NCBI GenBank assembly: GCA_044892505.1
Contig: CM097884.1
Coordinates: forward strand, 14,260,001-14,324,000
DNA length: 64,000 nucleotides
Direction of reading: 5' to 3'
DNA from: Schmidtea nova
Lineage: Eukaryota
The notes below the pieces were generated by a model. The model was not told the DNA's origin, made no database searches, and saw only the letters and a program-made list of their open reading frames with translations. Of the stretch, positions 18,641 to 54,640 are shown one piece after another. Each line of letters begins with the position of its first letter. Position 1 is the stretch's first letter. A program made the position numbers and the translations under genes.

Positions 18641-18989
18641 AAATCGTCGACAATTTAATTCAAATAATTTTTGGGAAAAAGTTAATTAAATAACTAACTT
18701 TATGTTTTTTCAAATTGATGTAAAAAAGATAACCCAGCCAATTCTTGTCCAATTTGTAAATGCAATGTTCAATCAATTCAAAAAATTTATATTCCATAAA
18801 TTGAAGAAAGCTACCAACACCAAAAGTACCATGTTTACAAAAACATTATGTTTGATATTTGTTAATTTAGATAATTTTAAATGTTGTTAGTAAATAGTGT
18901 AGTTGTATTAGCTATATTTAGCTATATTAGTTATATGTATAGTTCTATAAAAGTTGTAATATTTATTTGCATAATTTTTTGTGCATTTT

Positions 18990-30288: not shown

Positions 30289-32331
30289 AGTTTTAAAAAA
30301 TATATATGATTAATAACTATGTAAATTAAAATGGAAAGATTAATTTTAAAATAATTTTAAAATTTTAAAATTGCAAAATTTATTATTTCAAATTGAATGA
30401 TTATCTATATTTATGTAGATTATTTAAACAATGCGTAAAACTTTAATTGAAATATTTTTAAAATATATTTAATTTTGTATTTCAAATATTTTCATATTTT
30501 AAACATTAAATCAAAAAATTAAAAAATTAAACACACTACAAACAGTAAAATAACAAAAAAACATTAATTCGATTTTTAAAAATTAAATTGTAAAATATAA
30601 AAGAAACGATTAAAATGAATAATTAAAAGAATTTAACATATTAGTAAAAGCTTTATTTAATACATTATTTTACATTAAAATTAATTAATTTAGAATTAAT
30701 ATAAATATTAACACAAAAATATTAATTTAATTTTAGAAAATATGAAGATTTTTTTTGGAAAAAATAGAAAAATTAAATCTTAACTCCAGTTTTCTCAAGA
30801 GAATCATTGTTATGCAAGGAAAAGTTTTCTATGATGGCTAGAGCACAGGATCATACCTTCGGTGGATCTATGGCAGATATTTTTACATTTTGTATATCGT
30901 GTCATTATAAGAAGATGGGTGTAGAAAAAGGGTTTTAAAATTAAAATAGTATACAGTGGGAAACGGAAGGTACAGAATAAAAATACATTTGGATTTGACG
31001 GCAATCACAATTCAATAATCAATGGAAAATATCAACTTCAATGACATTATGATTTTAATGATTCTATATGGTGATATTTTATTGTTGATCTTATTTGACT
31101 TTTGTTTTATGATGATAATTATCTATTGTATATTCATGACAATTATGTGATTAAGCTGTGACTATCTGACAATTTTTATTTTATGGGATAATTTTATTTT
31201 GTTACTGTTAATAAAATTAATTTTTGTAATAAAAATTTATCAACATGACAATTTATAATTTGACAATTTATCATTTGTGATTTTGCGAACATTTATTGAC
31301 ATTTTTATGGTGATGGACAAAATTTTATATAATTTTGAAAGAATATTTTATGTAAATTAATTTTTTAACTATTTGGAAAATGGATTATATTTTCATTTAT
31401 ATNNNNNNNNNNNNNNNNNNNNNNNNNNNNNNNNNNNNNNNNNNNNNNNNNNNNNNNNNNNNNNNNNNNNNNNNNNNNNNNNNNNNNNNNNNNNNNNNNN
31501 NNNNNNNNNNNNNNNNNNNNNNNNNNNNNNNNNNNNNNNNNNNNNNNNNNNNNNNNNATAAAATATATTTATGACCTACAAAGGTCAGCAAAATGAAATA
31601 ATATTCTAAGGTTAAAAAATAATTTTGAAAACAATTCTATTTTGAAAACAATTTCAATCAAATCAAGAAGCAAAATAACAATCATTATTGACAGATTAAG
31701 TGCCTTAAAATTTAGTATATAAACTGACTGATTTTTCAGTCAAATCACCCCAAACATCATTGCGATTAAAAATCTAATAGTTGTAATTGACTATAAAATT
31801 AAAATAGAGCATACCGTAAATCGAGCTCAGAGCAGCATTCACGCATCACATATTACAATCATAACACATTTACACACAGACAAATTTAAATTTGAAAGAA
31901 GTTGTTTGATTTTGATTTATCTTGGTAATTATCATTTTGTTATTTAAATAAAAATTTAGTACGAATCAATGTTATCTTATTTATTTATATAAGATACCAA
32001 GTTGAGACTCTGGGAACCTCAACATCATTTAATTTTCGTTTATTTTATGTTGCTATTATTTAATCATTATTTTATATATCAGGTATTTTATTACGAATAG
32101 GGAGAAGAGCGGGCTAGGAAACAGGCACAATAATGACGACATAGCCAATCAAAATTGAGAATACCCTCGGGGATGGAGTAAAAAATCTTATGATAATTAA
32201 TTTTTATTATATAATTGATGACGTATTAATAAAAGGTCAAATTTTACAAAAAATTCAATAACACTTAGAAAATTCAAAATTTTCAGACACAATTTTAACA
32301 AGATAATTATTACAGGACATAACTAACTTAA

Positions 32332-34173: not shown

Positions 34174-35183
34174 CACTTTGTGTCATAATTTTGCGTACGG
34201 GTTAAAGAATGTTCTTAGAGGAAATAAAATTTAAAAATATTTCTATTTAACAAAGTTTACATTTAAATAACTTTATTCGAATAAATAAATATACGACATT
34301 TATGAACAGAACAAAATGAGTTCGAATTACAAAGAAATTTTGATTTTAAAATTGCACAATTTTGCGTACGATATAATTATGTATTTTGAAAGAGTTATTA
34401 TTTTAATATTTGATCCTTTTGCCTTGATGTTCTAAAACATCACATATTCGGCTTGGCATAGAATCGTATAGATGCTTAATTGCAAGTCTTTAAGTCTCAT
34501 TGATTGTCGCAACAGCCGAAGTAATTCGAAGCAGCAGTTCCATCCTGTTACGTGGCCGATTTTCCTTGTAGACAAGGTTAGACACCATAGACCAGACATT
34601 TTCAATAATGTTTAAATCTGGACTAAAAGGTGGCCAATTTAGAAGTATCACTCCATTGTCTTCGAAGTTTTTAACGGCATCTTTTGAAACATGTATTGGA
34701 CAATTGTCTTGCTGAAAGATGAAATTTCGACCCATATTCATTTTAATTAAAGGAAAAGCAACTAAGTGCAATATATCCATGTATTTACAGGTGTTTTGTT
34801 TCCCATTCATTAACTTAAAAGTCAGCAGTCCATTGCTCATTATCATTCCTCAGATCATAATTACTGGAGCTCTAAGCACTCGTCTGACATGAAATGGGGA
34901 CTTGTTGCTGTCAATCCAACTAAAATATGAGTCGCATCCATATAGAGTAAAGCGTTTTTGATCAGAAAATACAACGTTATACCAGTCTATATTATCTTTG
35001 ATATGATCTCTGGCAGCTCTAATCCGCTTAAGCCGATATTTCTTCAATAAAGTAAATTTGGATCTGAAAGTTTTGTATTCAAATTTCAGACATTTCAATG
35101 TCCTGGAAATTGTGCTCTTTGAGACATTAAATTTAAATTCTTCGATTATAGATGACGCAGATGATTTAACGCCAACAACATTA
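34174..35183 (-). mobile_element. Tc1-like transposon, 3-prime part (split by the gypsy insertion)
   Basis: VSKSTISRTLK, VVFSDQKRF, FQQDNCPIH, WPPFSPDLNIIENVW; TA-flanked end CACTTTGTGTCATAATTTTGCG. Confidence 0.9.
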
Positions 35184-36048
35184 TGTTGGGTTATTGGTGT
35201 TAAGTCGGTAGTTTCTGACTCCGGTGTTCTCTTTCAATTACAAAATAAACAAGACCCAACACAATAACTTTCTTTATTTGTCAATTGATCACAACTCTTT
35301 TTATCACAAAAAGTTACGCCGGTTCTGCACTCTTCGCGTGAGGGTAGAACACCCAATGGGATATCTCCCTCTCTGACACGCAATAGATTAAGTATAAACT
35401 CTACTTTTGGTTTTCTTTCGACGTCTCCTTCAAATGTCTTCTAACGATTTGATTCACGTTGCCTACTTTTATTCTTCAATCGGTTGGCCTCGAAACTTTG
35501 ACTTTGACCCAATGGCAATTTCGGCACTTTGCTCTCCATTTTTATACCATCTCTGTGTTGTCATTCTGTCGGTGTAATTGGATATTATCGAAGCCGCTCG
35601 CTTGTAATCGGATCTGATTAGCTCTGCTTGGTCGTAACTGGATATTTGTCGTTTATGGTTTTTCCGGCTCCCCCCCGGGGCATTCAATTTAATTTGATAG
35701 TTTAATGGCCTCGCTGATGCCCCGGGTTTCCCACATCGCTCGGATCTCCTACAAGCTCGGGTTTCCCACTAGCTCGGGCTTCCTATAGAATAATTAATTA
35801 TTTTAATTAATTTGTATTTTCCAATTATTTCCTTCTGGGGGTCCCTTTTTATTTTTATATACCCATATTCGAATTCGTCTCGTTGTTTGGTATCCTCCCA
35901 TACCAGTTTCCCCCGCTTAAACTTTATTTTAATTTTTTATAAATTTTTAATTAATGTTTGAACATTAATTATTATTTTTTTCAATTTTATATTTTTATTG
36001 ATTTATGCATTTTTAAATTTATTTTCTGTGATTTTCACAACCCCAACA
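35184..36048 (-). repeat. 3-prime LTR
   Basis: About 3 substitutions versus 50925-51789 by eye. Confidence 0.97.
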
Positions 36049-36050
36049 TA

Positions 36051-36064
36051 TCTCCCCCTTTTTT
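36051..36064 (-). promoter_or_regulatory. Polypurine tract
   Basis: AAAAAAGGGGGAGA, 2 nt before the 3-prime LTR. Confidence 0.9.
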
Positions 36065-37973
36065 AAAGATTCGTCCTCGAATCTACATATACACATATTT
36101 TTGATCATAAATCCTGACAATGATTCTATAATAATAATAGTAATGATAATATCACGAATAATAGTAATAATAAGGATAATTATAGTAATAATTGCAATAA
36201 TACTGGTAGTAATGACAATGACCTAAGTATAATAATGATGATGATAATAGTATTAGTAGTACCACTATAACGATAATAATGGTAGTAATACTATTAATAA
36301 TAGTGATAATACTAGTATAATATTNNNNNNNNNNNNNNNNNNNNNNNNNNNNNNNNNNNNNNNNNNNNNNNNNNNNNNNNNNNNNNNNNNNNNNNNNNNN
36401 NNNNNNNNNNNNNNNNNNNNNNNNNNNNNNNNNNNNNNNNNNNNNNNNNNNNNNNNNNNNNNNNNNNNNNNNNNNNNNNNNNNNNNNNNNNNNNNNNNNN
36501 NNNNNNNNNNNNNNNNNNNNNNNNNNNNNNNNNNNNNNNNNNNNNNNNNNNNNNNNNNNNNNNNNNNNNNNNNNNNNNNNNNNNNNNNNNNNNNNNNNNN
36601 NNNNNNNNNNNNNNNNNNNNNNNNNNNNNNTTTTCAAAATAATTTGTTATTTTAATTTATTAATTTTAATTTAAACTTTAATTCTATAAATTAATTAAGG
36701 AAGGGAAATTGATATTCCAAATAAATTTTATTTTCATTGCCATCTCTTTTAAAGTGACGCTACTTTAATATAAATTATAAAAGAAATGGCCGCCTCAGCT
36801 TCTCAGATATCGCCGCCGCAATAAAAGGCGGTGAACTAGGATTTTTATCATTATTTTATTTCCAAATTTTGTAAGTAAATTTTTTTTGTTTTATTTACTT
36901 TATTAATATAAATTTTATGTTTTTCAATTTTATGTTTTCAATTGAAATTATAATATATTTTTTTATATACATATTTTTATATGTTTTTAAGTCAGATTAT
37001 TAACATGGAAAAACTGCAATGGCTTTATATTCATAACTTTGTTTTATTTATTTTTTTTTTCATCGATGCCATCTACAGGATTGTGTATATGAAAATCAGA
37101 GAATTATTGTTCCGAACAAGTGGAAAATAATACTGAAAAATGAATGCTTTTGCAAAAAGGCTATGTTGTAATCCGAAAAGACAGAGTGATTTGCAAAACA
37201 TGTTGGTAGATATTTATTTTATTTTATTTTTTTTGCATTAAATATATATGATTATAAATAAAAATAGTAATAACAATAAAATATATACTTTTTTAGATAT
37301 CGTTTTACAGGATAATGGTCTGTGTGTATAAGCATGTGTGTGAACGAATGTCGAATCGATAACATTATTCATTAGATAATTATTAATCACGAAAATTGTT
37401 TATGAAGAATTTTTTTTTCTTTTTTTTTTTTCGACTTTATAATTTTGTCATAACTATATTTGGTACTTTAAAATAATGAACCCAATTGACATTCGTTCAA
37501 ATTTAAAAATTGTGAAGTGCATGTTTTACAGAATAATCCTTTTCTTAGTATTATTTCTGTGTGTTTATCTCTATATTTGGAATACTTTATCGGACAAGCG
37601 ATAACTCATCAGAACATTTAGATTATTATGCCAACGATTTACTTTTGCCAATTGAAACAGAAATACAATAATAATAATAGAAATGACAATATTAATAACA
37701 ATAATAATGATAATAATAACAACACCAATNNNNNNNNNNNNNNNNNNNNNNNNNNNNNNNNNNNNNNNNNNNNNNNNNNNNNNNNNNNNNNNNNNNNNNN
37801 NNNNNNNNNNNNNNNNNNNNNNNNNNNNNNNNNNNNNNNNNNNNNNNNNNNNNNNNNNNNNNNNNNNTGTCCAGGAGAGTATGATCCCGGTGATTAAGGG
37901 CTGTTGGTTTTTATTTAGATTTAAAATTGTCATCATATAACAACAATGATACTAACAATAATAATAATAGTAA

Positions 37974-38004
<31 letters not shown>

Positions 38005-38875
38005 GATAATGACCCTAATACTACTAATGATAATAGAGTGATATTCTAATAATGGGATCACAATGTTGATGAATTTAATAATAATTGTCTTCGTCTTATG
38101 CTTTTATGATATTTATGATAATTTCATTTTATTATTATTTTATTCTGTTTTATTTATTTATTTTGTTTTTGCCAATGTTTGTTTTATTGATTCCATCATC
38201 CCTTTGACGATATAATACCAATAATAATCTGATTAATAACTGTAATATAATAATTGACAACTTTCAATCACTACTCAGGGAGATTGATTTAGAGTTTTTT
38301 GTTTTTATTTCGTCCTGAATTTTAATTATTGTATATAATGCTTATAAGGATCGAAATTTTCTTTTGATATCGCACTTATAGTGATCGTATAATGATAGTA
38401 ACATTAACAACAGTAATAATAATAATAATAATATTAATAATAATAATAATAATAACTGCCAACCTCTAATCGCTGTCCAGGAGAGTACACCCCCGGTGAT
38501 TAAAGGTTGTTGGTTTTTATTTAGCTTCAGAATTTTTATTTATTCAATTCTTTTTTGTGTTTTATTTATTTATTAAAATTTTTTTTTTTTTGTTGTTGTG
38601 GGGGTTTGACTGGTGGGCGCCATTTTAACGAACTGAGACAGAATTACTAAATTTATTTATAAATAATCACATATATAATTAATATATTTTTAGTTCATTT
38701 TGATTTCCAGCCGCTTTGCCCCATTTCGATATCTGATAATCGTTTCTTCTTTTTCATACACCACCCCGTTGATGGTCATTGTTTCCCCGACGTCGACGTT
38801 GGATGCTGAAGCTTTCCTTTTGCGATCCTCCTTTTGTTCTATTGGGCCATACTCCATCGATAATTGGATTCTTAT

Positions 38876-40138
38876 TTATTTTATGGATTCTATCCATTCG
38901 CAATTCTCTTCAATCTCCTCTAAATACATTTCAGTTGCCCATTTCAACTTTTGAATACTCTTTTCTGTTCCTGTATCTATTTCATCCACTTCCATGTTTG
39001 TCTCGTCTACGACCATTATCGTTCTTTCCGATCTGGGAATTTCAGATATTGATTCCATATGTTGTCTAGTTTTATACTCTTGCAATGAATACTTTTTTGA
39101 TGGCCCTATCTTAGGCATTGATATATCATCGATCCAAAGGTTTTCTAGTCCCAAATATATCTTCCGAATGCTTTTGACGTCCTCTAAAGCTGAGTGAATA
39201 CCCATTTGCATCTCTTCTCCATAGAGTTCCTTCATTATGGTTTTGAGCTTATACCATTCCCCTCTTCTTGTCACTCCTTTTAATTGCAACGCTTGAGCAG
39301 TAGCTAGATCCCGTATGCCATAAAGATGATTTACCCATATCCCTAGGAATTGTAATTCTGCATGTAGGTCATGTCCTACGAGTATTTTCCCGATTGTCAG
39401 TTTTTGGATTTCCTTCATCTCTTCGTACTGGTCTTTTTGATTTCGGCTTGCCACCTCCGTTATTCCATGGATGTTTGAGTTGAAATGTTTGAGTCTTCCT
39501 CTAGGTGTTAAGAAGACATTTTTCACAACTTTCCCGTAATAGTTCATAATGGCCACCGCCAAGGGAATCATCTTTCCAGTCATGCTGGTTCCATATTCGG
39601 CATCAATGAACAATATTTTGTTCCGAATTTCTTCTATACCCATTTCCCTCCGAATAAAGGACAATTTTCTTTTTAACATTTCCTTTGTTATTTGTAGGAG
39701 TTCAAGATTTTCTTTCTGCATTGGCTCCTCGCTGGGTACATCATCAATTTCGTTTTTGATCCTTGTTTCCACTACAATTGTGGCATCCTCGTTTGCTGCT
39801 CTTAATATTTTCCCGATTGCTGGCTCCTTGATTTTCCATGACGAAAGTTTTTTGATCTCCCACCATATTTGATCATTTTCGTCTAGAATTTCCACCGTCC
39901 CTCTGATGACGTGGATATAGTATTCGTCTTTATCTGATATTTTTAGTTCCTTTGTCATTTGAAATTTTGATTTTCTGTCTATAGTGAATACTTGGACTTT
40001 CATTTTTCTGTCGTCCAACCTTAGATAATTTGGAATTTGCAAATTGTTGACTATCTGGAATCTTCTTTGGCCGGCATGATTTCTCATCATCTTCAGATAG
40101 CTGTCATACGTTTCTCTGGCCCATTGTATCTGCTCCAT
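38876..40138 (-). CDS. 420-aa accessory protein with REX4/ISG20-like DEDDh 3-5 exonuclease domain
   Basis: ExoI ILFIDAE, FNSNIHGIT, ExoII ILVGHDLHAEL, IRDLA, KLKTI...ExoIII HSALEDV. Confidence 0.9.
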   Translation of the reverse strand: MEQIQWARETYDSYLKMMRNHAGQRRFQIVNNLQIPNYLRLDDRKMKVQVFTIDRKSKFQMTKELKISDKDEYYIHVIRGTVEILDENDQIWWEIKKLSSWKIKEPAIGKILRAANEDATIVVETRIKNEIDDVPSEEPMQKENLELLQITKEMLKRKLSFIRREMGIEEIRNKILFIDAEYGTSMTGKMIPLAVAIMNYYGKVVKNVFLTPRGRLKHFNSNIHGITEVASRNQKDQYEEMKEIQKLTIGKILVGHDLHAELQFLGIWVNHLYGIRDLATAQALQLKGVTRRGEWYKLKTIMKELYGEEMQMGIHSALEDVKSIRKIYLGLENLWIDDISMPKIGPSKKYSLQEYKTRQHMESISEIPRSERTIMVVDETNMEVDEIDTGTEKSIQKLKWATEMYLEEIEENCEWIESIK

Positions 40139-40323
40139 TTCTTACAAACGATTATAATTTAAATTTGAATTAATTCAATTTTGACGCTAGGACTAAGATG
40201 GAGTACCCAAAGGATACTGTCTTAGTTGGTAGCGGTATAAATAAAAATATAAAATTACCGATTTAATTGAAGTTTTCTTAGTTATTTGAAATTAATTTAA
40301 ATTTTATGATGTCTAAGTTTACC

Positions 40324-40390
40324 TTATATACCCCCCTTTTGATTTTTCTATCCCTTTTTCTACTCCCTCACTCTTTTAGTATTAGCCAAT
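40324..40390 (-). promoter_or_regulatory. Putative internal Pol II promoter for the exonuclease ORF
   Basis: ATTGG (CCAAT box) at 40386-40390 about 55 nt upstream of TATATAAG at 40323-40330, about 190 nt before the ATG. Confidence 0.45.
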
Positions 40391-40514
40391 CAAATCACTT
40401 TCCCACTTTCCCATGCCGAAGAGTGCAGATTCACATGAAACAATTATAAAAGAAAATGTCACTAGATACTAAACTATTAATCTACCATAATTGCATGCAA
40501 ATAATTGTATCTCA

Positions 40515-43500
40515 CTATACAAACGTCTCCTCGTAATCGATCCAAGGTCTCGGGGCCTCGGATTGATTCGTAGAATGTCTTTCAGTTTTTCGAATTTCAA
40601 AGATGATGACAGATATGAGAATAATGACAAATATTGTTATAATGATAATTGTTATTAATAATGTTACACATAGTAATTCATTTTCCGTAGGTGAGGCTGA
40701 TATAGTTTTATTGCTTGGATTTGACACCTTGATGTGAGCAGTTGTGATTCGCGTTGATTGATTTAACTTTTGTGGGTAACTGTCCATCTCAGTATATGAC
40801 ACTCGAACAAATTTGTCCTCTACCAAGGTTAATTGCCAAAGAGTGGAGTATTTGGCTCGCCGATAATACTTGATTTTTATTAGCACTATTTGAGAGTTTG
40901 ATTTTGACCGTAGTTGTCGGAAAGATAAGATCTTTGATTCATTTCGGTTCTCTAATATTCCTTGTACTTTTCCACAATAGTATAAAACAGCTCTCTGATT
41001 GGGGTACGTTTGACGGGTGACATTTATCGTCTGATCATACACATGAAAGATAACTCTGTTTGTTTCATTGATCAAGTTTATCGTGTGTTGACTGGAATGG
41101 ATTAGAACCCACTGATCGGTGCTGTCTGTTCCATTTTCGTACAACGACTTTTCAAAATATTGTATTTGAATATTATACATCTGAAATAATTTTAAATTAA
41201 CATATTTTATAAATGGTTTTCTGCTGTTCAGTGTATCGATAGCATGATTTTGAAAGACAGTTTTTACTTGCTGGGATTCATGAGAGTTCCAATATACATT
41301 AATTCCATTGATTACTGGTTCAATGGATACGCGGTCTTGTAGTCTTTTTGTCCATACATTGACACGTATTAGATCATGGACTCTTGTAAAATTATCTTTA
41401 AGATTTACTCGTGTTATTATCCAAGGGTATTTATAATTCATTGCTAATTCACGCGCGACATGTGTATTTTTGTTATAGTTTAATTTTACTGGGGGCTCGA
41501 AATAGTTCAGCAGATTATTTATCTCTATTTCTTCCGTCGCTTCGCAATAATAGATCCATACTATTTGGGTACATGTTGAATACACATCGATATTTTCTAA
41601 TAATGGGACTTTCTTCATTGCATATGCTGGGAATGTTCGTATTGCCGACGCACACAAAACATTGATCATCATCACTGTTGTTATCAACAACGTTTTACTT
41701 AGGTAGTTTAATTGAGTAGGGTTTTTTGTAAATTTTTGTTTAATTACTTTCTCTTTTTCGCCGTTACTTGGTTTTGACCTCAAGGGATATCTTTCTTCCA
41801 GCGGAACTTTCTTACATCGGTTTACATGAATGACAATCGTTCCCGCCTTTTTATTATTTTGTGGACGCAATTTTAAATTCGTCTCGGTTGTATCACACAC
41901 CAAATAAGGTCCTTTAAATGGTCGCTGTAGTTTGGTAGACAGCCCTTTCGTTGGCTCTGGTTTATTTATGTACACCAAATCTCCAACTTTAATATCATGT
42001 GCATGCGCACGTTTATCATAGCATTCTTTATATGCTTCTTGATTATGCCTTATTTTCAATCCCGCTTTGACCCATACTGATTGCAGTCTTTCCTGCATTA
42101 CTACTTTGTAATCGGATACGTCCATGTATTGTGAGATTGGTGGTTGAAACTTTAAGTCAATCGGCATATTGTTTCGTCGTAGGTACATAAGATAAAATGG
42201 TGTTTCACCGGTGCTTTCATTCACTGCATTTCGATATGCAAACAAACATGGCTTAATGAACAAATCCCAATCTTTTTGTTTCCTGTTTACATAAGACGAA
42301 ATCATGTTAATTAATGTTCCATTAAATCTGTCGACTAACCCATCTGTTTGTGGGTGATATGGGGATGTATTAAGTTTTAGGATTCCGAATAATTCGGTTA
42401 TAGATTTAAATAATTCGCTTTGAAAGTTTGTTCCTTGGTCTGTGAGCAATTTTCTTGGTGCTCCGTACCGAAATATGATGTTTTCTACAAATATTTTCGC
42501 AACAGTTTCTGCCTTTTGATTCTGCATTGCATATGCTTCCGGCCATTTTGTTAGGTAATCACAAAATACGATGATATATTTATTTCCATTGGTTGTTTCT
42601 GGTAGTGGACCAACAATATCCATTGCTGTCATTTCCATTGGTGCTACCGGCACGGTCATAGGTTTTAAAGGAACTTTTATTTTCCTTCCTGTATTTCGCC
42701 TGGTCAGACAAACTTCACAAGTGTGACACCATTGTCTGACGTCTTGCTCTATCGTGTCCCAGTAATATTTCTGTTTTAATCTTGATAATGTTTTTCGAGC
42801 AGATAAATGTCCTCCCAATGCCCCATCATGATACAACAACAGTAATGCTGTTCGATGTTTTGCCGGTACTACTATTAATAAGTTTTCATTTTTCACACAT
42901 TTCAACAACCCATCATGGATGACGTATTTATGTTTTTCTTCCGCAATGTGCTTCCAGTCACTTTCTCTTTTTATTGTGACAGCATGTTTCCGCAATTGAT
43001 TCAATTCAACATCGTTTTCCTGATCACCCTGTAATTCCTTCATATTATTTGCCGTTTTAATTGCCATAAATATCGTATTTTCATAATTTACTTCATTTTG
43101 AATAATATTTTCTTCAGGGATTCTCGACATTGCGTCCGCATTTCCATTTGACTTCCCCGTACGGTACTTAATTTCAAAATCGTACTCCTGTAATGCAATT
43201 GACCACCTAATCAGCTTGCTTGCCGAATCTCGATGCTTCATTAACCATTGTAATGGGTTATGATCCGTAAATACAATAAACTTTCTCCCAACCAAATATT
43301 GTCGAAAATTAGTTATCCCATATACTAATGCTAGCGTTTCTTTTTCGATTGTGGAATAATTTTTTTCATGTGGTTTTAATGAACGGCTTGCATAAGCAAT
43401 TACGTGATCTTTCTCACCTTCTACTTGCTGTCCAAGTACTGCTCCTAATGCAAAATTGCTTGCATCTGTCATCAGTATAAATGGTTTTTTGAAGTTCGGA

Positions 43501-46500
43501 CATCTCAATATTGGTTGTTTAATAAGACTCTCTTTTAATTTATCAAATGCTTCTTGTTGAGCTGTTACCCATTTGAATTTAGTCTGCTTTTTTAGCAACA
43601 TGTTTAAAGGTTGTGCTACATGCGAAAAATTCCTTATGAATTTCCTATAATAGCTCGCTAATCCAAGAAATTGTCGGACTTGATCCGCATCTTTGGGGAT
43701 CGGATACTTTTTGATCTTTTCTACATTTTCTGGGTTTGGTTGTAACCCTCTCCGTGAAATTATGTGCCCTACGTAAACAACTTCTGATTTTCCCCATTCA
43801 CATTTTGAAGGTTTTATTTTTAAATTGGCTTCTATTAGTCGTTTAAACACTATTTCCACATCTTTTAAGTGTCCCTGAAAATTGTTTGAAAATATTATTA
43901 TATCATCAATATAGACTAATGCATGTGGTATATCACGCAAAACAAAATTCATACCTCTCTGGAATGTAGCTGGTGCTCCCGTTAGACCGAATGGAAGCAC
44001 ATTAAACTCATATAGTCCTTTCCCATCTGAAAATGCCGTTTTTCTCCTGTCTTCCTCTTTGACTTTAAATTTGTTATATCCTTTGTTAAGATCGATTACT
44101 GTGAAGAATTGTACTTCTCCCATCTGATCAAACATTTCTTGCGGAACTGGTATAGGATATGTGTCTTTTCTTGTCACTTGGTTTAATTTCCGATAATCAA
44201 CACAAAATCGTAATTCACCGTCCTTCTTTTTCACTACTACTATTGACGATGAGAATGGTGATGAACTATCTCTTATTATTTTGAATTCCTTCATGGCTTT
44301 AATTTGCCGATCGCTTTCTTCTTGATGTATATATGGAATTCTGTACGGTCGTATTTTTATAGGAGTTTCATCAAGCAATGGTATTTCGTGTTCAATTATC
44401 TGAGTGAGTCCTAGATCATACTCATGTTTCGCGAATGCATTTTTATACCTTTTCAATAATGCCGCAAATTCTTGTCTTTGTGCCTCTGTTAGATCATCAC
44501 TTGTCACTTGTGGTTCTTTATAGATTTTGATATTTCTAGGTAGTTTTTGCACTTCCTCCCCTTTCATTTTTGACAGTTTTCCCAACTTTGTTTTGGGTTT
44601 CATTTGAACAGATTTTGTGCTACAATTAGCTATTCTTACTGGCACGGTTTTGTCTTTAATTTTTACTATTTCGTCACACATAGGTACGTCGTACTTTTCT
44701 ATTAGTTTTTGATTTGGTTCGAATATACACTCTTCTTCGGAAACATTTTCTACATTAGCGTAGTATATCACTTCGCTTTTTGGTGGTACTTCCAACGTTT
44801 GATTTAAAAAGACCTCTCCTGCTTCATGCACTACCTCATCAGTCTGCCTTTTTATTAATTTGCCCGTCTTTAAGTCCAGTGAGATTCCTTGTAATTGTTC
44901 CATGATATCCATGCCAATCAAACATTTGACAGGGCTTTTTCTCATTACTGATACCCAATGAATTACTTCCTGATTTCCTATATTCAACTTTACTTCTAGT
45001 TTTCCAATAATATTTAATACGTTATGCGTCATTGATTTAATAATTTTTGTTGTTGGCTTTATTTTCGCTTTTTCCTGTCTCGTTAAGAAACTCTCCGATA
45101 CTATACTGTGACTCGAGCCTGAATCCAATAACGCTTCCACTTTTCTTTCATTAAACTGTATGGATATTCTAGGTTGTTTTCCTCCAATTTCTATTGTCAT
45201 CAATGCGTAACTACATGGTAACCCAAGCATGTTCTTTCTTTCAATTTCGGCGCTTGATGGCTCAATCTTCTCTAGTTCGATTTTAATCTCATCAACTGGC
45301 TTCATTTCTCTCAACTTCTCACTTGGGTATATTGGAGCTGTTGGTATTAATGTCGGTGTGTACCATTTAGAAAGAGTGTCAATTCCTGTTAATTTTGGCA
45401 TTGGTTCAAGCAAGAACCTGGTTTCGGGTTCTATTCTACTTTTCATTATGCTCCTTCGAAAATTATTTTGCTCTGATCTGCCGCCACCGTTCTCATTATC
45501 AGGACCATTATTTTTATCCTCATGATCGCATAGTGATTCTTCGCTTTTCTGATCATTTCTCAATTGCGCTCGTACATTTGCCATTTCTTTGTATTGATGA
45601 CTTGTAATGAAGAATCTAGCCAAAAATGGAATACAACCAATCATCATTTTCCATGACCATCCGGAAATTGTATATATCCTGTGAGTGGACAATACTTGTG
45701 ATATTATCACCTTTACCGTTACTGCAATTACATAAATACCAATTAAACCTGCACAGGCTTGTCCCAAAAACATGAATTTTCCCCAAATCTTTTCCATTGT
45801 TTTGTAAGTAGCTCGTTTAAAATGATCAGGTGTCAGCAAGTATTCGTAGTTAACTTTCCCTTCTCCATTCGGCAATATGGTATCAATCATTTCTGAAATC
45901 ACGCGTTCCTTTTTTGACGGAAATAACAAATTTCTTTGGGCTTCTTCGATGTCTTCGCTCGCATACAAACCCATTTGTGCCATTTTATTCATTGATGTAA
46001 AATTTATTAAGTATTCCAAATTCGTCAATTCCAATTTATCTGGTGTTCTTACTCCTCGGTAATCTGGTAGCGCTATCCATGAATCTTGTGCTAAGCGATA
46101 TAATGGGGCTAATAATCGATTACATTGCAAGGTTTTTGGTTTAACTTGTTCCCCCAGCAGTATTCGGGTTATCGGTTCCATAAATCGTAGTTTCCCGCCA
46201 ACACTTACTGGCAATTCATTTGTACATTTCTCGTATTTTACTATTTTCACTGTAATTTCTTTGCATCGGTAACTGTACAGCGCTTCTCCAAAGATTCTAG
46301 CAAATACACCATTTTCTGAAATTAGCATGGGTGCTACTAAATTCGGGTTTGTAACCGCCATCGCCATTCGATTTCGAAGTATTTCTTTATTCAATTTACA
46401 ATCGTTCAAGATCATTTCTCTATATATGTTCTCCATGGTATTTTGGCTAAAATGAAATAAATAATCAATTTTATTATTAAAATAATGAGTTAGTTTTATA

Positions 46501-47462
46501 TCATCCCTGTGAATTCTCGTCTTCGCTTCATGTACAGTCGTTTTTGCCACATATACTCCTTTGTAATTTGTTACATAGACTGTTTGACCACATTTGCTCG
46601 TTATCTCCTTTTTAATAAAGCGCATGCTGTCCGTTGGCAAGGTTGACATTAAAACCGTCGCTGTTTGTCTTGTCCACAGTGGAATTGACCTTACTGTGCC
46701 ATTTTGTTTATAATTCATATTAAAGTTGTCTGGTCTCTCCCTAAATTGCTCTCCGGTTAACTCTTTGAAATTCATTGTTTTTAAATGAGCCAGGTTACAT
46801 ATATTGGTTTTAACATCGTAAACGAGGATTGACTCTCCCGTGTGACAACTAGTTTGCTTCATATTACAAAATGGATGAGTTTGTAGTTTTCCGGTATCAT
46901 CATCAAAAGATCCTTCGAACATTCTCAATTCGGTTAAGTATCCCTCTATTACCACTGTGTGTTTAATTATTTTCTCATTTATTTTATACGGTTCACCTTC
47001 ACAGTCACCGTCTGATTTCATCACTACCTTCACCACTAATGTTTCTCGAATTTGATGATTTAATTTCGCTTTTAATCGAATTTCAGGGCTGATTTTTAAT
47101 TCCCCCGTTTGGAAGGCTGTTAAGCAATTTTCCGGCAATACATCCACCGGTCGTGGAATGGCGTGCATTTTGATTAATGACGTATGGCTCCATTTACCAC
47201 AGAAGAATACAAAAGTGGTTCGTTTTACAATGCATTCTCTAACTTTGGTACGCCGTAAATCTGACTCTTGATTGACATAGTATTTTATTTCGTTTTCAAT
47301 CTTTAATTTTCGAGGGTATGCGTCTGGGCACTCTGACATATCAACCACTGAGTAAATTTTCCACATTTCGGTTTGTGAACAATCGTATGCCACCAATGAC
47401 GTCGTTTGTGCAATAACTGCACATAGAATAATCATCATGAACATTATCCAAGGGAATATCAT
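40515..47462 (-). CDS. env-pol: Env1-PR-RT-RNaseH-IN-Env2 polyprotein, 2315 aa
   Basis: Signal peptide + AYDC glycoprotein + TM; LLDSGS protease; YIDD RT; TDAS/EKE/TDH RNase H; HHCC + D,D integrase and GPY; second signal peptide, N-glycosylated ectodomain and C-terminal TM. Confidence 0.95.
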   Translation of the reverse strand: MIFPWIMFMMIILCAVIAQTTSLVAYDCSQTEMWKIYSVVDMSECPDAYPRKLKIENEIKYYVNQESDLRRTKVRECIVKRTTFVFFCGKWSHTSLIKMHAIPRPVDVLPENCLTAFQTGELKISPEIRLKAKLNHQIRETLVVKVVMKSDGDCEGEPYKINEKIIKHTVVIEGYLTELRMFEGSFDDDTGKLQTHPFCNMKQTSCHTGESILVYDVKTNICNLAHLKTMNFKELTGEQFRERPDNFNMNYKQNGTVRSIPLWTRQTATVLMSTLPTDSMRFIKKEITSKCGQTVYVTNYKGVYVAKTTVHEAKTRIHRDDIKLTHYFNNKIDYLFHFSQNTMENIYREMILNDCKLNKEILRNRMAMAVTNPNLVAPMLISENGVFARIFGEALYSYRCKEITVKIVKYEKCTNELPVSVGGKLRFMEPITRILLGEQVKPKTLQCNRLLAPLYRLAQDSWIALPDYRGVRTPDKLELTNLEYLINFTSMNKMAQMGLYASEDIEEAQRNLLFPSKKERVISEMIDTILPNGEGKVNYEYLLTPDHFKRATYKTMEKIWGKFMFLGQACAGLIGIYVIAVTVKVIISQVLSTHRIYTISGWSWKMMIGCIPFLARFFITSHQYKEMANVRAQLRNDQKSEESLCDHEDKNNGPDNENGGGRSEQNNFRRSIMKSRIEPETRFLLEPMPKLTGIDTLSKWYTPTLIPTAPIYPSEKLREMKPVDEIKIELEKIEPSSAEIERKNMLGLPCSYALMTIEIGGKQPRISIQFNERKVEALLDSGSSHSIVSESFLTRQEKAKIKPTTKIIKSMTHNVLNIIGKLEVKLNIGNQEVIHWVSVMRKSPVKCLIGMDIMEQLQGISLDLKTGKLIKRQTDEVVHEAGEVFLNQTLEVPPKSEVIYYANVENVSEEECIFEPNQKLIEKYDVPMCDEIVKIKDKTVPVRIANCSTKSVQMKPKTKLGKLSKMKGEEVQKLPRNIKIYKEPQVTSDDLTEAQRQEFAALLKRYKNAFAKHEYDLGLTQIIEHEIPLLDETPIKIRPYRIPYIHQEESDRQIKAMKEFKIIRDSSSPFSSSIVVVKKKDGELRFCVDYRKLNQVTRKDTYPIPVPQEMFDQMGEVQFFTVIDLNKGYNKFKVKEEDRRKTAFSDGKGLYEFNVLPFGLTGAPATFQRGMNFVLRDIPHALVYIDDIIIFSNNFQGHLKDVEIVFKRLIEANLKIKPSKCEWGKSEVVYVGHIISRRGLQPNPENVEKIKKYPIPKDADQVRQFLGLASYYRKFIRNFSHVAQPLNMLLKKQTKFKWVTAQQEAFDKLKESLIKQPILRCPNFKKPFILMTDASNFALGAVLGQQVEGEKDHVIAYASRSLKPHEKNYSTIEKETLALVYGITNFRQYLVGRKFIVFTDHNPLQWLMKHRDSASKLIRWSIALQEYDFEIKYRTGKSNGNADAMSRIPEENIIQNEVNYENTIFMAIKTANNMKELQGDQENDVELNQLRKHAVTIKRESDWKHIAEEKHKYVIHDGLLKCVKNENLLIVVPAKHRTALLLLYHDGALGGHLSARKTLSRLKQKYYWDTIEQDVRQWCHTCEVCLTRRNTGRKIKVPLKPMTVPVAPMEMTAMDIVGPLPETTNGNKYIIVFCDYLTKWPEAYAMQNQKAETVAKIFVENIIFRYGAPRKLLTDQGTNFQSELFKSITELFGILKLNTSPYHPQTDGLVDRFNGTLINMISSYVNRKQKDWDLFIKPCLFAYRNAVNESTGETPFYLMYLRRNNMPIDLKFQPPISQYMDVSDYKVVMQERLQSVWVKAGLKIRHNQEAYKECYDKRAHAHDIKVGDLVYINKPEPTKGLSTKLQRPFKGPYLVCDTTETNLKLRPQNNKKAGTIVIHVNRCKKVPLEERYPLRSKPSNGEKEKVIKQKFTKNPTQLNYLSKTLLITTVMMINVLCASAIRTFPAYAMKKVPLLENIDVYSTCTQIVWIYYCEATEEIEINNLLNYFEPPVKLNYNKNTHVARELAMNYKYPWIITRVNLKDNFTRVHDLIRVNVWTKRLQDRVSIEPVINGINVYWNSHESQQVKTVFQNHAIDTLNSRKPFIKYVNLKLFQMYNIQIQYFEKSLYENGTDSTDQWVLIHSSQHTINLINETNRVIFHVYDQTINVTRQTYPNQRAVLYYCGKVQGILENRNESKILSFRQLRSKSNSQIVLIKIKYYRRAKYSTLWQLTLVEDKFVRVSYTEMDSYPQKLNQSTRITTAHIKVSNPSNKTISASPTENELLCVTLLITIIIITIFVIILISVIIFEIRKTERHSTNQSEAPRPWIDYEETFV

Positions 47463-47564
47463 CGTCTTCCTTAGTTTTGGACTTACTCTTCCGTTTAATT
47501 GCCTTTGCGGTGCATCGTTTTCCGGTTTCTTTCTTTTCTTTATTATCGATAAATTTAATGTTTT

Positions 47565-50500
47565 CTACCCTCCACGCTCTCTCAGCCAATTACTTAAAGA
47601 CTCATTTATTAGTCGAGCCGCAATGTCAATTAACTTATCAAGCTTGTCTGACTTTGTAAATGCATGAATACTGATCTCTGAAACAACGTAGGTTAGAATT
47701 ATTAGCACTACTTCTTTATCGATCCCATTTTCGATCAACTTTTCTATTACTTCACAGTTACAAAAGCTATCCTCTTTGCCCAATTTCCGCACTACTCCTG
47801 GAAGTCTGATTTTCACTTCATCTACTATTCCTTTCAATTCCTCTTCCGTTTCTGTCTCTATTTTTAGGATTGGGTATACGACTCCAACCAAATTTCTTAT
47901 TACGTCACTTGTTTCTTCAACTTCCTGCTCTAATTTTACTAAGGTTTTCTTCATCTCATACAATGTTCTAGTCTTCGTATTCGCACTTTTTATTTCACCT
48001 TTTTCGATATTCGTATCTTCAATAACTGCCATTTCTGCTGTCTGAGCATTATTATTAACCCTCTTTTCCCCCTTATAATCATCAGTAACTATTTCAATTT
48101 CGCTTTCCTTTATTTCTTCTGTTTGCTCATCTGTGTCTGAAAATTCAACTTTGTCAAGCATCCTCGAATTATATTCTTTATTTGCGATTATGCGATTTAT
48201 CAAATACCCTTGACTTCCATTAGTACTTAAATACCCATATTCATCCAGTTCCTGTGGCACACATCCGTAGTCATATAAATATTCATCGTCATCCAATTCT
48301 TCCCCTTTATATCTCAGCACTATAATTCCATCTTTACCTAACATTTCCGCAGCTCTTTTACGCACTTTTCGAACTTTCGTACACCAGTGTTCCTCTACAT
48401 ACTCAGTTTTCCCAATATCTTCATATTCTATTGCAATTGTTAACGAATTTAACTCAACTCTATCTTTTCTAAGCTCTTTACCCAATTTTCTCATTATTCT
48501 CTTTAAACATTGTCTATATCCCGTTCTTCTAAACAAACAGGGTCGTATCGCATTAGCAAGTTCTAATTTTTCCTTTTGCCCAAATTCAGATTCCTCTATT
48601 AATTTTACTATTTCTTTAATTTCGTTTTCGTCACCAATACATAAAACATCATTTAGCTCCTTTACTATTTGCATCGGATCACTTCTTGTCATTTCACTGT
48701 TACTCATCATACTGGCTATTTGTAATTCATTTTTGTTCCCTGGTATAAGACCACAATCTATTAAATATTCATCATTTTCTAAATCTCTATTTTTAAACTT
48801 TAATTCGACTACCCAGCCTTCACATTTCTCTCTTAGTCTCCTTTTTAAATCTTTTACGCGATCATAGGCTTCACAACGACAAGTAATCACATTTTTATCA
48901 TTTTCATTAACAACATCAATAGAAATAAAATCTAACCATTTATTTTCTCGAAACGCTTTCCCAAATTTTCTCATCAATTCTTTAATTTCTTCTCTATTTG
49001 TTACATTTATTTGATAATAATTAGCACACAAATTAATCACGCCTTTCAATTTTCTCATACTTAACGACATTTGACTCAGGCTTTTAACCGATACCAATAT
49101 TTTAGATGATTCTTCCACGCTAGCTTCTAGTAATTTCTCAAGTCTTTTCATCATCATGGTAGCCTTTTCGCTTTCCAAATCGTCTTTTGTACACCCAGTT
49201 GTCGTGTCAGCTTCTGTCATGTCTTGCTGCGATCCATACATCATGTGATTATCCAATTCATCATCAGATTCAAACTTGGACATTAAACGATCTAAACGTC
49301 GACCCATTTCTTTCACTTGGTTTTCAATCTTTTCATTGAAATCATCTGATTGAACAAAAGCCACGTTGTCTGTCTGCAGTTTATCATTTTGAAATCTTAT
49401 TGATTTTTTTAATATAGGTTTCTGAAATTTGTCGACATTCCTCGGGCATGATCTAGCCATGTGTCCATACCCTCTACATGAATGACATTGAATTTGACCT
49501 TGAAGGTTCACTCTATCTCTTTGTGGGGATGGCGAAGTTGATGGAGACCTCGATCTAGCAAAACAATTCCGAGAGACATGTCCTTTCCTTCCACAATTGT
49601 AACATTGCACATTATCGTTATTACGCTGATCATTAAAATTTAGTTTATTGAAACTTTTCTCACCATTACCCTTCAACCAATCTGGCCACATTCGTTTTGG
49701 GCTTCGTTGAACGTTGTTTTTAGACCAGCATTGATTGCTGTTATGTCCCATCCTTTGACAATAATCACACTGAATTGGAGTTGGACTTTTTGGAGACCTA
49801 TTTTTGAACCAACATTGATTAACATGATGTCCTATTCGTTGGCAATGGCTGCATTGAATTGGCCTCTCTTTTTCATCAATTTGAACATTTGTTGATTTAT
49901 TTGGCTCAAATCTTTGTCTAAACGTTGGTGATGGACTAATTGATTGCTGAAGCCGATTGTTTTTGACTGGAGTTATGGACCGTTCTCTGGGTTCATTGAT
50001 GATGGCAAACGATTCTGATTTTGGCTGTGAACTTTTCAGATTTAACTCAATTTTCATCGCCTTTTTGATTAACTCATCAAAGTTATTGAAGTCCACATAA
50101 CATAATGCCTTTTTGATCTCCTTTTTGACTCCCGTTAAGAACTGGTCTTGTAGCAATTCTTTCACCTGCTTTGCCACTTCAATCTGTTCCGGCTTTACTT
50201 CGAATGCTTTCTCTGCAAGAGTAGTCAAGTGGTACGCAAATTCACTTACCGATTCCTCTGATTTTTGCACTCGATTATAGAACTTCTGCCGCATTATCCG
50301 TTTTATATCCCCTCCAATTAGTTTCGCGGCTAAGGCATCTTTCAATTTCGTCCAGTCATTCGCAATTGTTCTTTTGTCAATTTGTTGCCAGGCTTCTCTC
50401 GCTGCTCCCTTCAGATATAGTGGCAATCTTTGCACCATTGTCGCTTGGCTCCATCCATAGGCTGTGGCGTACATGTAGTAATCCGCCATAAAATCAACGA

Positions 50501-50648
50501 ATTCCACTGGATCACCGCCATACTGATTTACTGGCAGTTTCTGGCAGCTAGCATAGTCATTGCCATTGCCGTTGCTGGTGGACATGGGCGTATCATCCTG
50601 ATTGTTTGTATTACTCATTTTTGTTTCTGGTTGTTTATTACTTCTCAA
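47565..50648 (-). CDS. gag: Gag, 1027 aa, with 4 CCHC knuckles and an extended C-terminus with two ubiquitin-like domains
   Basis: Capsid-like LPLYLKGAAREAW...Q...ESVSEF...FLTG; four CX2CX4HX4C at 49450-49856; Ubl-like repeats at 48718-48930 and 48245-48450. Confidence 0.92.
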   Translation of the reverse strand: MRSNKQPETKMSNTNNQDDTPMSTSNGNGNDYASCQKLPVNQYGGDPVEFVDFMADYYMYATAYGWSQATMVQRLPLYLKGAAREAWQQIDKRTIANDWTKLKDALAAKLIGGDIKRIMRQKFYNRVQKSEESVSEFAYHLTTLAEKAFEVKPEQIEVAKQVKELLQDQFLTGVKKEIKKALCYVDFNNFDELIKKAMKIELNLKSSQPKSESFAIINEPRERSITPVKNNRLQQSISPSPTFRQRFEPNKSTNVQIDEKERPIQCSHCQRIGHHVNQCWFKNRSPKSPTPIQCDYCQRMGHNSNQCWSKNNVQRSPKRMWPDWLKGNGEKSFNKLNFNDQRNNDNVQCYNCGRKGHVSRNCFARSRSPSTSPSPQRDRVNLQGQIQCHSCRGYGHMARSCPRNVDKFQKPILKKSIRFQNDKLQTDNVAFVQSDDFNEKIENQVKEMGRRLDRLMSKFESDDELDNHMMYGSQQDMTEADTTTGCTKDDLESEKATMMMKRLEKLLEASVEESSKILVSVKSLSQMSLSMRKLKGVINLCANYYQINVTNREEIKELMRKFGKAFRENKWLDFISIDVVNENDKNVITCRCEAYDRVKDLKRRLREKCEGWVVELKFKNRDLENDEYLIDCGLIPGNKNELQIASMMSNSEMTRSDPMQIVKELNDVLCIGDENEIKEIVKLIEESEFGQKEKLELANAIRPCLFRRTGYRQCLKRIMRKLGKELRKDRVELNSLTIAIEYEDIGKTEYVEEHWCTKVRKVRKRAAEMLGKDGIIVLRYKGEELDDDEYLYDYGCVPQELDEYGYLSTNGSQGYLINRIIANKEYNSRMLDKVEFSDTDEQTEEIKESEIEIVTDDYKGEKRVNNNAQTAEMAVIEDTNIEKGEIKSANTKTRTLYEMKKTLVKLEQEVEETSDVIRNLVGVVYPILKIETETEEELKGIVDEVKIRLPGVVRKLGKEDSFCNCEVIEKLIENGIDKEVVLIILTYVVSEISIHAFTKSDKLDKLIDIAARLINESLSNWLRERGG

Positions 50649-50902
50649 TTCGTAATATGGTCGGTTTGGTACAACTTTTTCTCTTCTAAATTTTAATATA
50701 TCAATTATAAATTTTACCTTTTATTTTAATTTCAACAGTATAAATCTTTCCACAATTATCAACAAACTTTTATCAACCCTTGATTCGATTTACTGACTTT
50801 TTTCTTTTAATCAATTTCACAATTTCCAAACTTTTTAGCAACTTTTAATTTCTTTTTGCCAATAAATATTCGATTTCTTTTTGCAACGCTTCACCGACTT
50901 TG

Positions 50903-50920
50903 ATCACGTCGGGCTCACCA
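50903..50920 (-). promoter_or_regulatory. Primer-binding site, tRNA-Trp
   Basis: TGGTGAGCCCGACGTGAT, 4 nt after the 5-prime LTR; complements the metazoan tRNA-Trp 3-prime end (ATCACGTCGGGGTCACCA) at 17 of 18 positions. Confidence 0.85.
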
Positions 50921-50924
50921 AATA

Positions 50925-51789
50925 TGTTGGGTTATTGGTGTTAAGTCGGTAGTTTCTGACTCCGGTGTTCTCTTTCAATTACAAAATAAACAAGACCCAA
51001 CACAATAACTTTCTTTATTTGTCAATTGATCACAACTCTTTTTATCACAAAAAGTTACGCCGGTTCTGCACTCTTCGCGTGAGGGTAGAACACCCAATGG
51101 GATATCTCCCTCTCTGACACGCAATAGATTAAGTATAAACTCTACTTTTGGTTTTCTTTCGACGTCTCCTTCAAATGTCTTCTAACGATTTGATTCACGT
51201 TGCCTACTTTTATTCTTCAATCGGTTGGCCTCGAAACTTTGACTTTGACCCAATGGCAATTTCGGCACTTTGCTCTCCGTTTTTATACCATCTCTGTGTT
51301 GTCATTCTGTCGGTGTAATTGGATATTATCGAAGCCGCTCGCTTGTAATCGGATCTGATTAGCTCTGCTTGGTCGTAACTGGATATTTGTCGTTTATGGT
51401 TTTTCCGGCTCCCCCCCGGGGCATTCAATTTAATTTGATAGTTTAATGGCCTCGCTGATGCCCCGGGTTTCCCACATCGCTCGGATCTCCTACAAGCTCG
51501 GGTTTCCCACTAGCTCGGGCTTCCTATAGAAAAATTAATTATTTTAATTAATTTGTATTTTCCAATTATTTCCTTCTGGGGGTCCCTTTTTATTTTTATA
51601 TACCCATATTCGAATTCGTCTCGTTGTTTGGTATCCTCCCATACCAGTTTCCCCCGCTTAAACTTTATTTTAATTTTTTATAAATTTTTAATTAATGTTT
51701 GAACATTAATTATTATTTTTTTCAATTTTATATTTTTATTGATTTATGCAATTTTAAATTTATTTTCTGTGATTTTCACAACCCCAACA
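50925..51789 (-). repeat. 5-prime LTR (TATAAAA at 51281-51287, AATAAA at 51014-51019)
   Basis: Near-identical to 35184-36048; followed by the PBS. Confidence 0.97.
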
Positions 51790-52010
51790 ATTATTATGAT
51801 TAATGTAACTTCTTATTCTTCTTTTATCATGTTGGTTTAAAATTTCTTTCCTCCCACGCTTTAACTGCTTTAACGCTTAAACGGCTTTTTCAATTTTTTG
51901 TCAATTACTTATTAAAACCAGTCTGATTGTGTCTGTTTGGATCTACACCTATCGAAAAGTTATGAGTCCGCAATTACTCATCATTTACTTGTGAAAACGA
52001 AGACATTTGT
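51790..52010 (-). mobile_element. Tc1-like transposon, 5-prime part (HTH)
   Basis: GRKEILNQHDKRRIRSYINHN joins in frame across the TSD to NVVGVKSSASSIIEEF at 35183. Confidence 0.85.
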
Positions 52011-52739: not shown

Positions 52740-54640
52740 AGTCACGCCCACAACCCCACTCAATCCACCATGTACAACAACGATTCTATCGCCACTCCCC
52801 CATCATATGTCCTAACGCGCTTTAACCACAAAACACGCCAAATCCCCATTTTCACGGATTTGCACACCGATATCGATTAATAGGATTAATAGGAATGCTT
52901 TTTACATGACGTACAATGGTTTCCCACTTTCTTCACCACTTTCACCCACTTTCATTTCCCACTTTCATCAACCACCAATGCTATCATAGAAATTCATTGC
53001 CGCGTTTTAGGAGGCGTTCGGCCCCCTACAGAACCGTCTTATTCATCCACTTCACGCCCAATTTTGTTCTTTTTGGGTCCCGACGGCACACCCTCGTTGT
53101 GGTTCCACATTTTCGAATGGCGCACGTCTTCCTTCCAGAAATCACGAGCCGATTACTTTCTTGACAGTTTACCCGCTGAGTTGATAGCCGAGCTTGCTCA
53201 GAAAATATCAGATGCCCTTTATTCTGATAGCCCATACGAGAACTTAAAAGGACTCATAGTAACCAAATACACCACATCGCAAACCCAAGCCCTACAAAAA
53301 TTATTAGCCCCACAACGTTACTCGGGCGAACAACCGAGCCAACGCGGCCATACCTGGACTCTCCAAAATTTTACACCTATTGACACACCAATTCCTTTCT
53401 GCACTGCCCCACCACCTACAAACTTCGCTTGCATTGTTCGACTCCGTAGACCCATATCATCTAGCAAAAATAGCTGACCGCATTTACGCATTTCAACCCC
53501 ACAAACCGCGCACTGATAATTACACACCACCACAACCATCTCCCATTGTTAACGCAACACATAAACCTGAAAACCACTACGCTAGCAACGTTGAAAGATA
53601 TCCCAACCATACACCGCCATTACATCTAGTACAACATCCCAACCGTCCACCGGCAACACGAGCACGTACAACCTAGTTACAACGCACCACTAATTTGCTA
53701 TTTCCACAGCCGATTTTGAAAACATGCACAGAAATGCTGCATTTGTTGCACTTCCGAATTACACAATTCTCATAACCCAGTCATTCCAATCTGTATCCAC
53801 CACCACCTGTTCAAGAACGAAGCCAAATTGTGCATCGAAGGATGAACATGGCACACCAGCAGTCACCACCATGCAAAAAATTAACTGAGTCATCGGATAT
53901 TCCTAGACGCTCCGATGACTTCCTGACAGTGAACACCTCTTCTCACAGCAAACCACGTCCAACGTACACAATATCAACTCCGCCAGTAAGCACCATCTCA
54001 GAAACAACCGCTACTCTCTCCACAGTACTATTTTCTCACACGACACCACCACCATAGCAATACAAGCACCAACACTAAAACAAGAACCAACCAGCACACC
54101 TTGCACAACACTAGCAACAACACCAACAACATTACCCGACACACCACACAGAGCACCATCCGCATCACTATCAGCAGCAACATTCACAAATTCCACAACT
54201 AACAATACCAGAAGCACAGCTCACATTTTCTGACGACGAAACCCGCACAAACTACACACACATTCTAGCACAGCCTCCACAAACCACATCTCCATCTCCA
54301 CTGTCAGCAACACTAACTACACCACTTTTAAACAGAATCCCTGGAAATTTCACCATCAACACCCAACTGTTCGAAGAATACGGTCAACCCAAACAACGCA
54401 CAATAACATTCCTCGCAGATACAGACTCGTCATATTCAATCCTACCCACCACCTTCACCGCAGACACACCCTGCTCATCCTCTGCCATTGCCGCGAAAAG
54501 TACACATATAAAGCTATCTGGTGCAAAAACAATCAAGTTTCGCCTCCCAAGTTTTTTTACTCCGATCCCTGAATCCGGTTTTGCATTACCCAAACGCTCC
54601 GCGTACTTCGGCGGGGGCTATTCTAGTGCCTCCGTCATAT
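52740..54640 (+). mobile_element. Truncated CsRn1/Kabuki-like Ty3/gypsy element (gag + protease)
   Basis: PSLWFHIFE, YENLKGLI...QKLL...GEQPSQ, LP..LQ..LA...LAKIADRI, CYFHSRF.KHAQKC, FLADTDSSYSILP; frameshifted. Confidence 0.8.

Follow-up and report, generated by a model that had tools for sequence, protein, structure and literature searches.

We examined a Ty3/gypsy LTR retrotransposon of Schmidtea nova in which Gag and Env-Pol are separated by one in-frame TAG, and consider this TAG to be probably a nonsense lesion in a polyprotein of a single ORF with an internal Env signal peptide. The element lies in the 64,000-nucleotide stretch of contig CM097884.1 analyzed here (the window, to which all coordinates refer), where it spans positions 35184–51789 on the minus strand (16.6 kb) and carries two LTRs of 865 nt with 3 mismatches between them. 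It is a young Ty3/gypsy LTR retrotransposon, and the features that characterize this class were found: TG...CA LTRs, a primer binding site (probably of the tRNA-Trp type), a polypurine tract, a target duplication and the order PR-RT-RH-IN. The complete domain order is Gag, ubiquitin-like, Bcl-2-like, chuvirus-type Env, PR, RT, RH and IN, and the features are as follows, from the 5΄ to the 3΄ end of the element.

50925..51789, minus strand: 5΄ LTR, 865 nt, TG...CA, with 3/865 mismatches to the 3΄ LTR
50903..50920, minus strand: primer binding site, tRNA-Trp-like; compared by eye, it differs at 1–2 positions from the Trp_CCA rows in the eLife supplement
47568..50618, minus strand: Gag region of 1017 aa with Retrotrans_gag, four CCHC knuckles, two ubiquitin/SUMO-like repeats and a Bcl-2-like domain (Pfam)
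48261..48377, minus strand: second ubiquitin/SUMO-like repeat (weak PF11976 match, E 0.0065)
47568..47861, minus strand: Bcl-2-like domain whose end motif loses its last column to the stop (PF00452, 7–99/100)
47565..47567, minus strand: in-frame TAG (sequence)
47463..47564, minus strand: 34-codon linker, basic toward its end (sequence and alignment of relatives)
47391..47462, minus strand: Env hydrophobic signal segment, from the ATG at 47462 (hydropathy, 1052–1070 of the read-through frame)
45507..47444, minus strand: Env, chuvirus/gB-type (Monjiviricetes) fusion glycoprotein PF24664 with a TM (E 1.6e-85; TM at 1621–1639)
44886..45179, minus strand: aspartic protease (Pfam)
43182..44234, minus strand: reverse transcriptase and RNase H (Pfam)
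42351..42869, minus strand: integrase zinc finger and core (Pfam)
40515..41699, minus strand: post-integrase tail of ~390 aa with a C-terminal TM (hydropathy); a weak fibronectin-III likeness (Atlas 0.87–0.89) is a lead only
38876..40141, minus strand: separate accessory ORF, DEDD exonuclease (RNase_T, E 7.8e-7)
36051..36064, minus strand: polypurine tract (sequence)
35184..36048, minus strand: 3΄ LTR, with a 4-bp target duplication at 35180–35183 and 51790–51793

The TAG at 47567–47565 ends the Gag ORF as GGG TAG when the sequence is read directly, and this ORF extends from 50720 to 47565 (minus strand), with its first Met at 50618 and a product of 1017 aa. Between the TAG and the ATG at 47462 are 34 sense codons (102 nt), KTLNLSIIKKRKKPENDAPQRQLNGRVSPKLRKT, and this ATG opens a 2349-codon ORF that runs to 40515 (minus strand) in the same frame as Gag. 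The initial annotation had described a shared frame, a single TAG, an open spacer of 34 codons and a TAG-AAAACA context; all of these were confirmed on the minus strand, with no additional stops in the spacer. However, its figure of ~3377 aa for the readthrough product was too high by 10, as a recount of the fused Gag-Env-Pol gave 3367 aa. Since the chance of 34 open codons at the composition of the spacer is p ~0.10, the open spacer by itself carries little weight.

A point missed by the initial annotation is that the stop lies within the Bcl-2-like motif. The TAG occupies the last column of the end motif rather than a domain boundary: the PF00452 match covers positions 7–99 or 8–99 of the 100 in the profile, and its last matched residue directly precedes the TAG. 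This match is weak (E 0.001–0.013, under the gathering score). When a profile built from seven relatives was compared with PDB, the 60 listed of 101 matches were all Bcl-xL or Bcl-2, with Bcl-xL the best (E 2e-4). In a Foldseek search with a poor single-sequence model of the domain (pLDDT 51.7), 39/47 rows belonged to the Bcl-2 family, none of them significantly and none at E 0.001 or better, and a phmmer search against PDB sequences returned mainly helical repeats of designed proteins, BOK appearing at E 1.7. The column of the stop is a sense codon in all aligned relatives that bear the motif (10/10), one residue is common to 9 of its 11 occupied rows (the 11th row being a chimeric model), and equal conservation was found in only 2 of 83 alignment columns. 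For L002, L003, P0039, P0032 and P0026, a Pfam Bcl-2 match was absent and the end motif was assigned by pattern or alignment. As judged from this alignment, the TAG truncates a conserved protein motif.

We then consider the relatives of the element. A search with Gag gave one match, P0003, which stops ~100 aa ahead of Env; its cluster-mates run on there, and two of them, P0007 and P0009, are single ORFs of 3222 aa. P0007 is the closest full-length relative, with 49% identity across 2261 aa of Env-Pol and 32% across Gag. A query across the junction, in which the stop was read as X, had 27 matches among the representatives, and 10 of these carried the Bcl-2-like end motif in frame into Env. Gag knuckles and Env occurred in one frame in six families (P0007/P0009, P0012, P0018, P0034, P0039 and L003), and the distance from the column of the stop to the Env motif, 59 aa here, was 37–79 aa in motif-bearing relatives. 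Because protein searches detect open frames only, such counts are biased toward open relatives. Two counts that suffer less from this bias point the same way. Among 30 proteins with the Env N-terminus, 12 extended at least 300 aa beyond it, and 11 of these 12 started at least 148 aa upstream, the sole exception being a chimeric gene model; the 18 short ones were uninformative. Two of two DNA loci recovered with a mid-Env pattern, which is not biased toward the junction, were stop-free through the junction; both came from one metagenome, in which 2/140 pattern matches were confirmed (0/62 in the first metagenome scan). Thus, no relative seen had a stop at this column (0/10 protein relatives, subject to the open-frame bias, and 0/2 DNA loci).

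Several starts fell nearer to Env. P0013, the nearest relative in the linker and a chimeric gene model, begins 33 aa before Env, and P0015, P0017, P0021, P0022 and P0024 begin 148–190 aa upstream of it, four of them on contigs of 7–20 kb; these five starts may come from the choice of the gene caller or from a break that lies upstream of the Bcl-2-like domain. The starts of these six relatives and the early end of P0003 count against the lesion. In an Env tree of the sequences gathered here, the element grouped with P0014 (99/97) and then, less securely, with P0007 (80/99). Scans of viral contigs yielded no retroelement relative, only one chuvirus-like contig and two chance 17-mer matches in others. 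The chuvirus-like sequence, L001, is an IMG/VR contig with the gene order L-G-N, whose G is 23% identical to the Env of the element. Between Env and RT, several relatives (P0012, P0024, L002) have aspartic protease domains in tandem arrays of two to four, and in L002 a cassette resembling the post-integrase tail sits between the protease copies. In the element, this tail has a second hydrophobic segment and a C-terminal TM; the tail is also present in P0007, and hydrophobic segments occur at similar places in P0039 and L003.

We estimated how readily a stop would arise by decay of the copy. Given that 5.8% of substitutions make stops and that ~17 substitutions (3.6–51) are expected from the LTR divergence, the probability of at least one stop at this LTR age is 0.63 (0.19–0.95). 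Counting against a lesion, the stretch from the beginning of the Bcl-2-like domain to the ATG receives only 3.2% of the nonsense-mutation mass, 1.4% falls in the last 43 codons, and the largest share of any single codon is 0.33%. Of the near-fixed differences between the ORF and the sequencing runs, 12 of the 16 listed were non-synonymous, which fits neutral decay of the copy. At the integrase site 42330–42332 (minus strand), which we take to be the third catalytic position, the element differs from two relatives, and this departure is a further sign of decay. Among the 40 of 3470 variant rows listed, none lay at 47565–47567, while 47634 and 47672 did appear; this would favor a stop fixed in the family, but the evidence is weak, because those same 40 rows include just one of 41 candidate odd sites. 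Many of these 41 sites are probably family-level differences. If a fixed stop in the lineage is given a prior of 5–8% (our own estimate), a rough comparison favors the lesion only modestly.

The element family was high-copy in the 4 sequencing runs that contain it, all from one study, and no RNA run was among these listed holders. The region 36050–38690 is an AT-rich 3΄ untranslated region of ~2.6 kb. It contains AAT microsatellites, two N gaps and a repeat of 66 nt (at 37868 and 38474), and its read depth was ~50–270 versus 1000–4000 over the coding part, which suggests that the 3΄ untranslated region varies among copies. The element is inserted in a Tc1/Tc3-like transposase gene (34490–35183 and 51790–51830, minus strand; HTH_Tnp_Tc3_2, DDE_3). 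Elsewhere in the window are an intronless Es2 host gene (29068–30309, minus strand), a MATH-domain ORF (18119–18685, minus strand) and a DUF7041 ORF (52893–53477, plus strand).

The initial annotation had offered three readings: programmed readthrough, expression through a separate mRNA or by reinitiation, and a nonsense mutation private to this copy. The last is now favored because of the open relatives, the cut motif and the lack of a signal. Another possibility, to which we give clearly less credence, is that a planarian lineage has fixed the stop in the Bcl-2 end motif, so that surplus soluble Gag is made and Env-Pol arises by signal-less readthrough or from the ATG at the signal peptide. 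As for the latter route, it is unlikely that a fixed split exists in which Env-Pol, with an N-terminal signal peptide, is translated from the ATG at 47462, whether through reinitiation, internal initiation, a separate mRNA or a spliced one. The stop is near the Gag/Env boundary, in a region with ~3% of the nonsense-mutation mass, and the ATG lies directly ahead of the Env signal segment with A at –3, all of which would suit such a split; however, A at –3 also occurs at 35 of 96 internal ATGs, and the start contexts are AAAAATG for Gag and GACGATG for Env-Pol. The gene model P0013 begins within the linker, as a split would suggest, and yet P0013 and P0007 both lack Met at this position. A Met within 10 aa before the hydrophobic core was found in only 6/17 relatives, so the ATG lacks conservation. 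Relatives usually have basic residues upstream of the core; here they lie in the spacer, upstream of the ATG, and together with the unconserved Met they fit an internal signal and a translated linker. A minor promoter at the gag-pol junction is described for Tca2 in the portion of the literature available on it, offering a precedent for a separate mRNA. Against a split, the spacer retains the length and frame of the family, the stop cuts a motif rather than falling in the linker, and a start at the signal peptide is absent from 11 of the 12 long relatives. A spliced mRNA is further disfavored by the purine-rich sequence ahead of the TAG, which lacks an acceptor tract. Splicing around the TAG was rejected, as no pyrimidine tract is present and the GTAAGT at 47486 (the element has 3) lies past the stop.

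Programmed UAG readthrough that sets the Gag : Gag-Env-Pol ratio, as in gammaretroviruses, appears no likelier than a split and, if anything, slightly less so. A lone in-frame stop followed by an open linker of family length is what readthrough would require, and retroelements usually need surplus Gag. Nonetheless, the CARYYA-type context, which we take from the initial annotation to be the motif for readthrough, is absent at the TAG. Folding of the 3΄ context, which had been proposed as a check for a pseudoknot, gave z values of +0.5 to +1.0 downstream of the TAG and –0.6 for a fold spanning the stop, with no stable structure; no H-type stem pair was found after the TAG, only three short stems, the same as in shuffles. 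The 100 nt after the TAG are 72% purine and 33% GC. Moreover, a stop at this place is absent from every relative seen, and it interrupts a conserved protein motif. According to the available parts of the published accounts, Moloney MuLV gag-pol (UAG) and Candida Tca2 (gag-UGA-pol) likewise have one in-frame stop after gag, MuLV using readthrough with a pseudoknot and Tca2 bypassing its stop with no signals in the flanks; in contrast to these accounts, the present junction has no pseudoknot, is followed by Env with a signal segment rather than by protease, and has open relatives. The gammaretrovirus analogy drawn in the initial annotation is thus unsupported, as the relatives are single-ORF and no readthrough signal was found. 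Finally, a mistake in base calling or assembly within a collapsed high-copy repeat is very improbable: scaffold N gaps (1086 N), the very high copy number of the family and the presence of only 66–68% of sampled words in the runs would allow for one, but 10.1 kb are free of frameshifts, and both the LTRs and the target duplication are clean.

If the TAG is a nonsense lesion, it would have arisen after insertion in this copy, or in a defective sub-lineage, of a family that would encode one Gag-ubiquitin-like-Bcl-2-like-Env-PR-RT-RH-IN polyprotein, an arrangement shown for relatives; the 34 open codons would simply be the ordinary family linker. Hydrophobic segments were found at 1052–1070, 1621–1639 and 3321–3339 of the read-through frame, and the four relatives scanned had comparable segments, with not all three above threshold in each. 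These three segments suggest a polyprotein threaded through the ER. The segment after the linker may act as an internal signal sequence, at which signal peptidase cleavage would release Env and leave Gag and the Bcl-2-like domain cytosolic. The Env TM would bring the chain back into the cytosol, where Pol would lie, and integrase would be followed by a second lumenal domain. In cellular Bcl-2 proteins, a tail anchor follows the Bcl-2 motif. Because the segment after the linker lies 35–60 aa past the Bcl-2 motif, it may serve as both signal and anchor, and could hold Gag and the Bcl-2-like domain at the membrane as do the cellular tail anchors. Unless bypassed, the TAG in this copy would leave Gag without an anchor and abolish Env and Pol.

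The element most resembles two described groups. Burro elements (GYPSM1, Burro1–4) are giant Ty3/gypsy elements of Dugesiidae planarians, published, in the portion of the report available, as encoding an in-frame SUMO-like-BCL2-Env-PR polyprotein, with a size of >30 kb and 4873–5140 aa (PMC6431247). Shared with them are the CCHC Gag, SUMO-like PF11976, BCL2-like, mononegavirus-like Env, PR, RT, RH and IN domains, an env in frame between gag and pol, and an accessory ORF (PMC6431247, same portion). SUMO-like, BCL2-like and Env domains precede PR in this order here as well, as judged from weak Pfam matches and the Bcl-xL profile (E 2e-4), and the relative P0007 also has ubiquitin and PF11976 matches in Pfam. 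In contrast to Burro, the present element has 16.6 kb and 3367 codons, has no Pfam match to BIR, ankyrin, MATH or dUTPase, and carries a DEDD exonuclease ORF, a post-integrase TM tail and the in-frame TAG; the single uninterrupted polyprotein of Burro is broken by the TAG in this copy and is open in relatives. Since it lacks the giant size and extra modules, it is Burro-like and not Burro. Extra DEDDy ORFs are known from bdelloid LTR elements, according to the accessible part of PMC5408684.

GAG-ENV-POL errantiviruses of gB type have been described in nematodes, bryozoans and flatworms (PMC13524379, in the part available), and a chuvirus/gB-type env lies between gag and pol in the present element (PF24664, E 1.6e-85). 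One of them, Smed_errantivirus_1 of Schmidtea mediterranea, has the same GAG-ENV-POL order, and its Env ectodomain is identical at 199/251 positions (79%) by a hand count from the supplement row available (PMC13524379). It is placed at CM039680.1:243273264–243288048, and 45 copies are listed for it. The available text of PMC13524379 gives no junction sequence or mechanism and has no mention of 'frameshift', 'readthrough' or 'Bcl-2', and that of PMC11410931 does not mention the junction. The metagenomic P0007/P0009 (3222 aa) and P0039 (3181 aa) share the compact layout, the ubiquitin-like repeats and the C-terminal TM tail, but have no stop, and P0007 has no Bcl-2-like segment. The element belongs to the GAG-ENV-POL errantiviruses as a new member that is compact and Burro-like, but it is not Burro itself.

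Were the stop fixed, the element would have been caught in the midst of a change from one polyprotein to regulated expression from two ORFs, in which the Bcl-2-like domain goes from membrane-anchored to free. It would then exemplify control of the Gag/Env-Pol ratio in GAG-ENV-POL elements, of which no description was found in the literature searched. If the TAG is instead a lesion, as we favor, the stop is ordinary decay and the value lies in the element. Together with its metagenomic relatives, this compact element indicates that the family of Gag-ubiquitin-like-Bcl-2-Env-Pol polyproteins is wider than the giant Burros, and it suggests a topology in which a captured apoptosis regulator may use the internal Env signal as its tail anchor as well.
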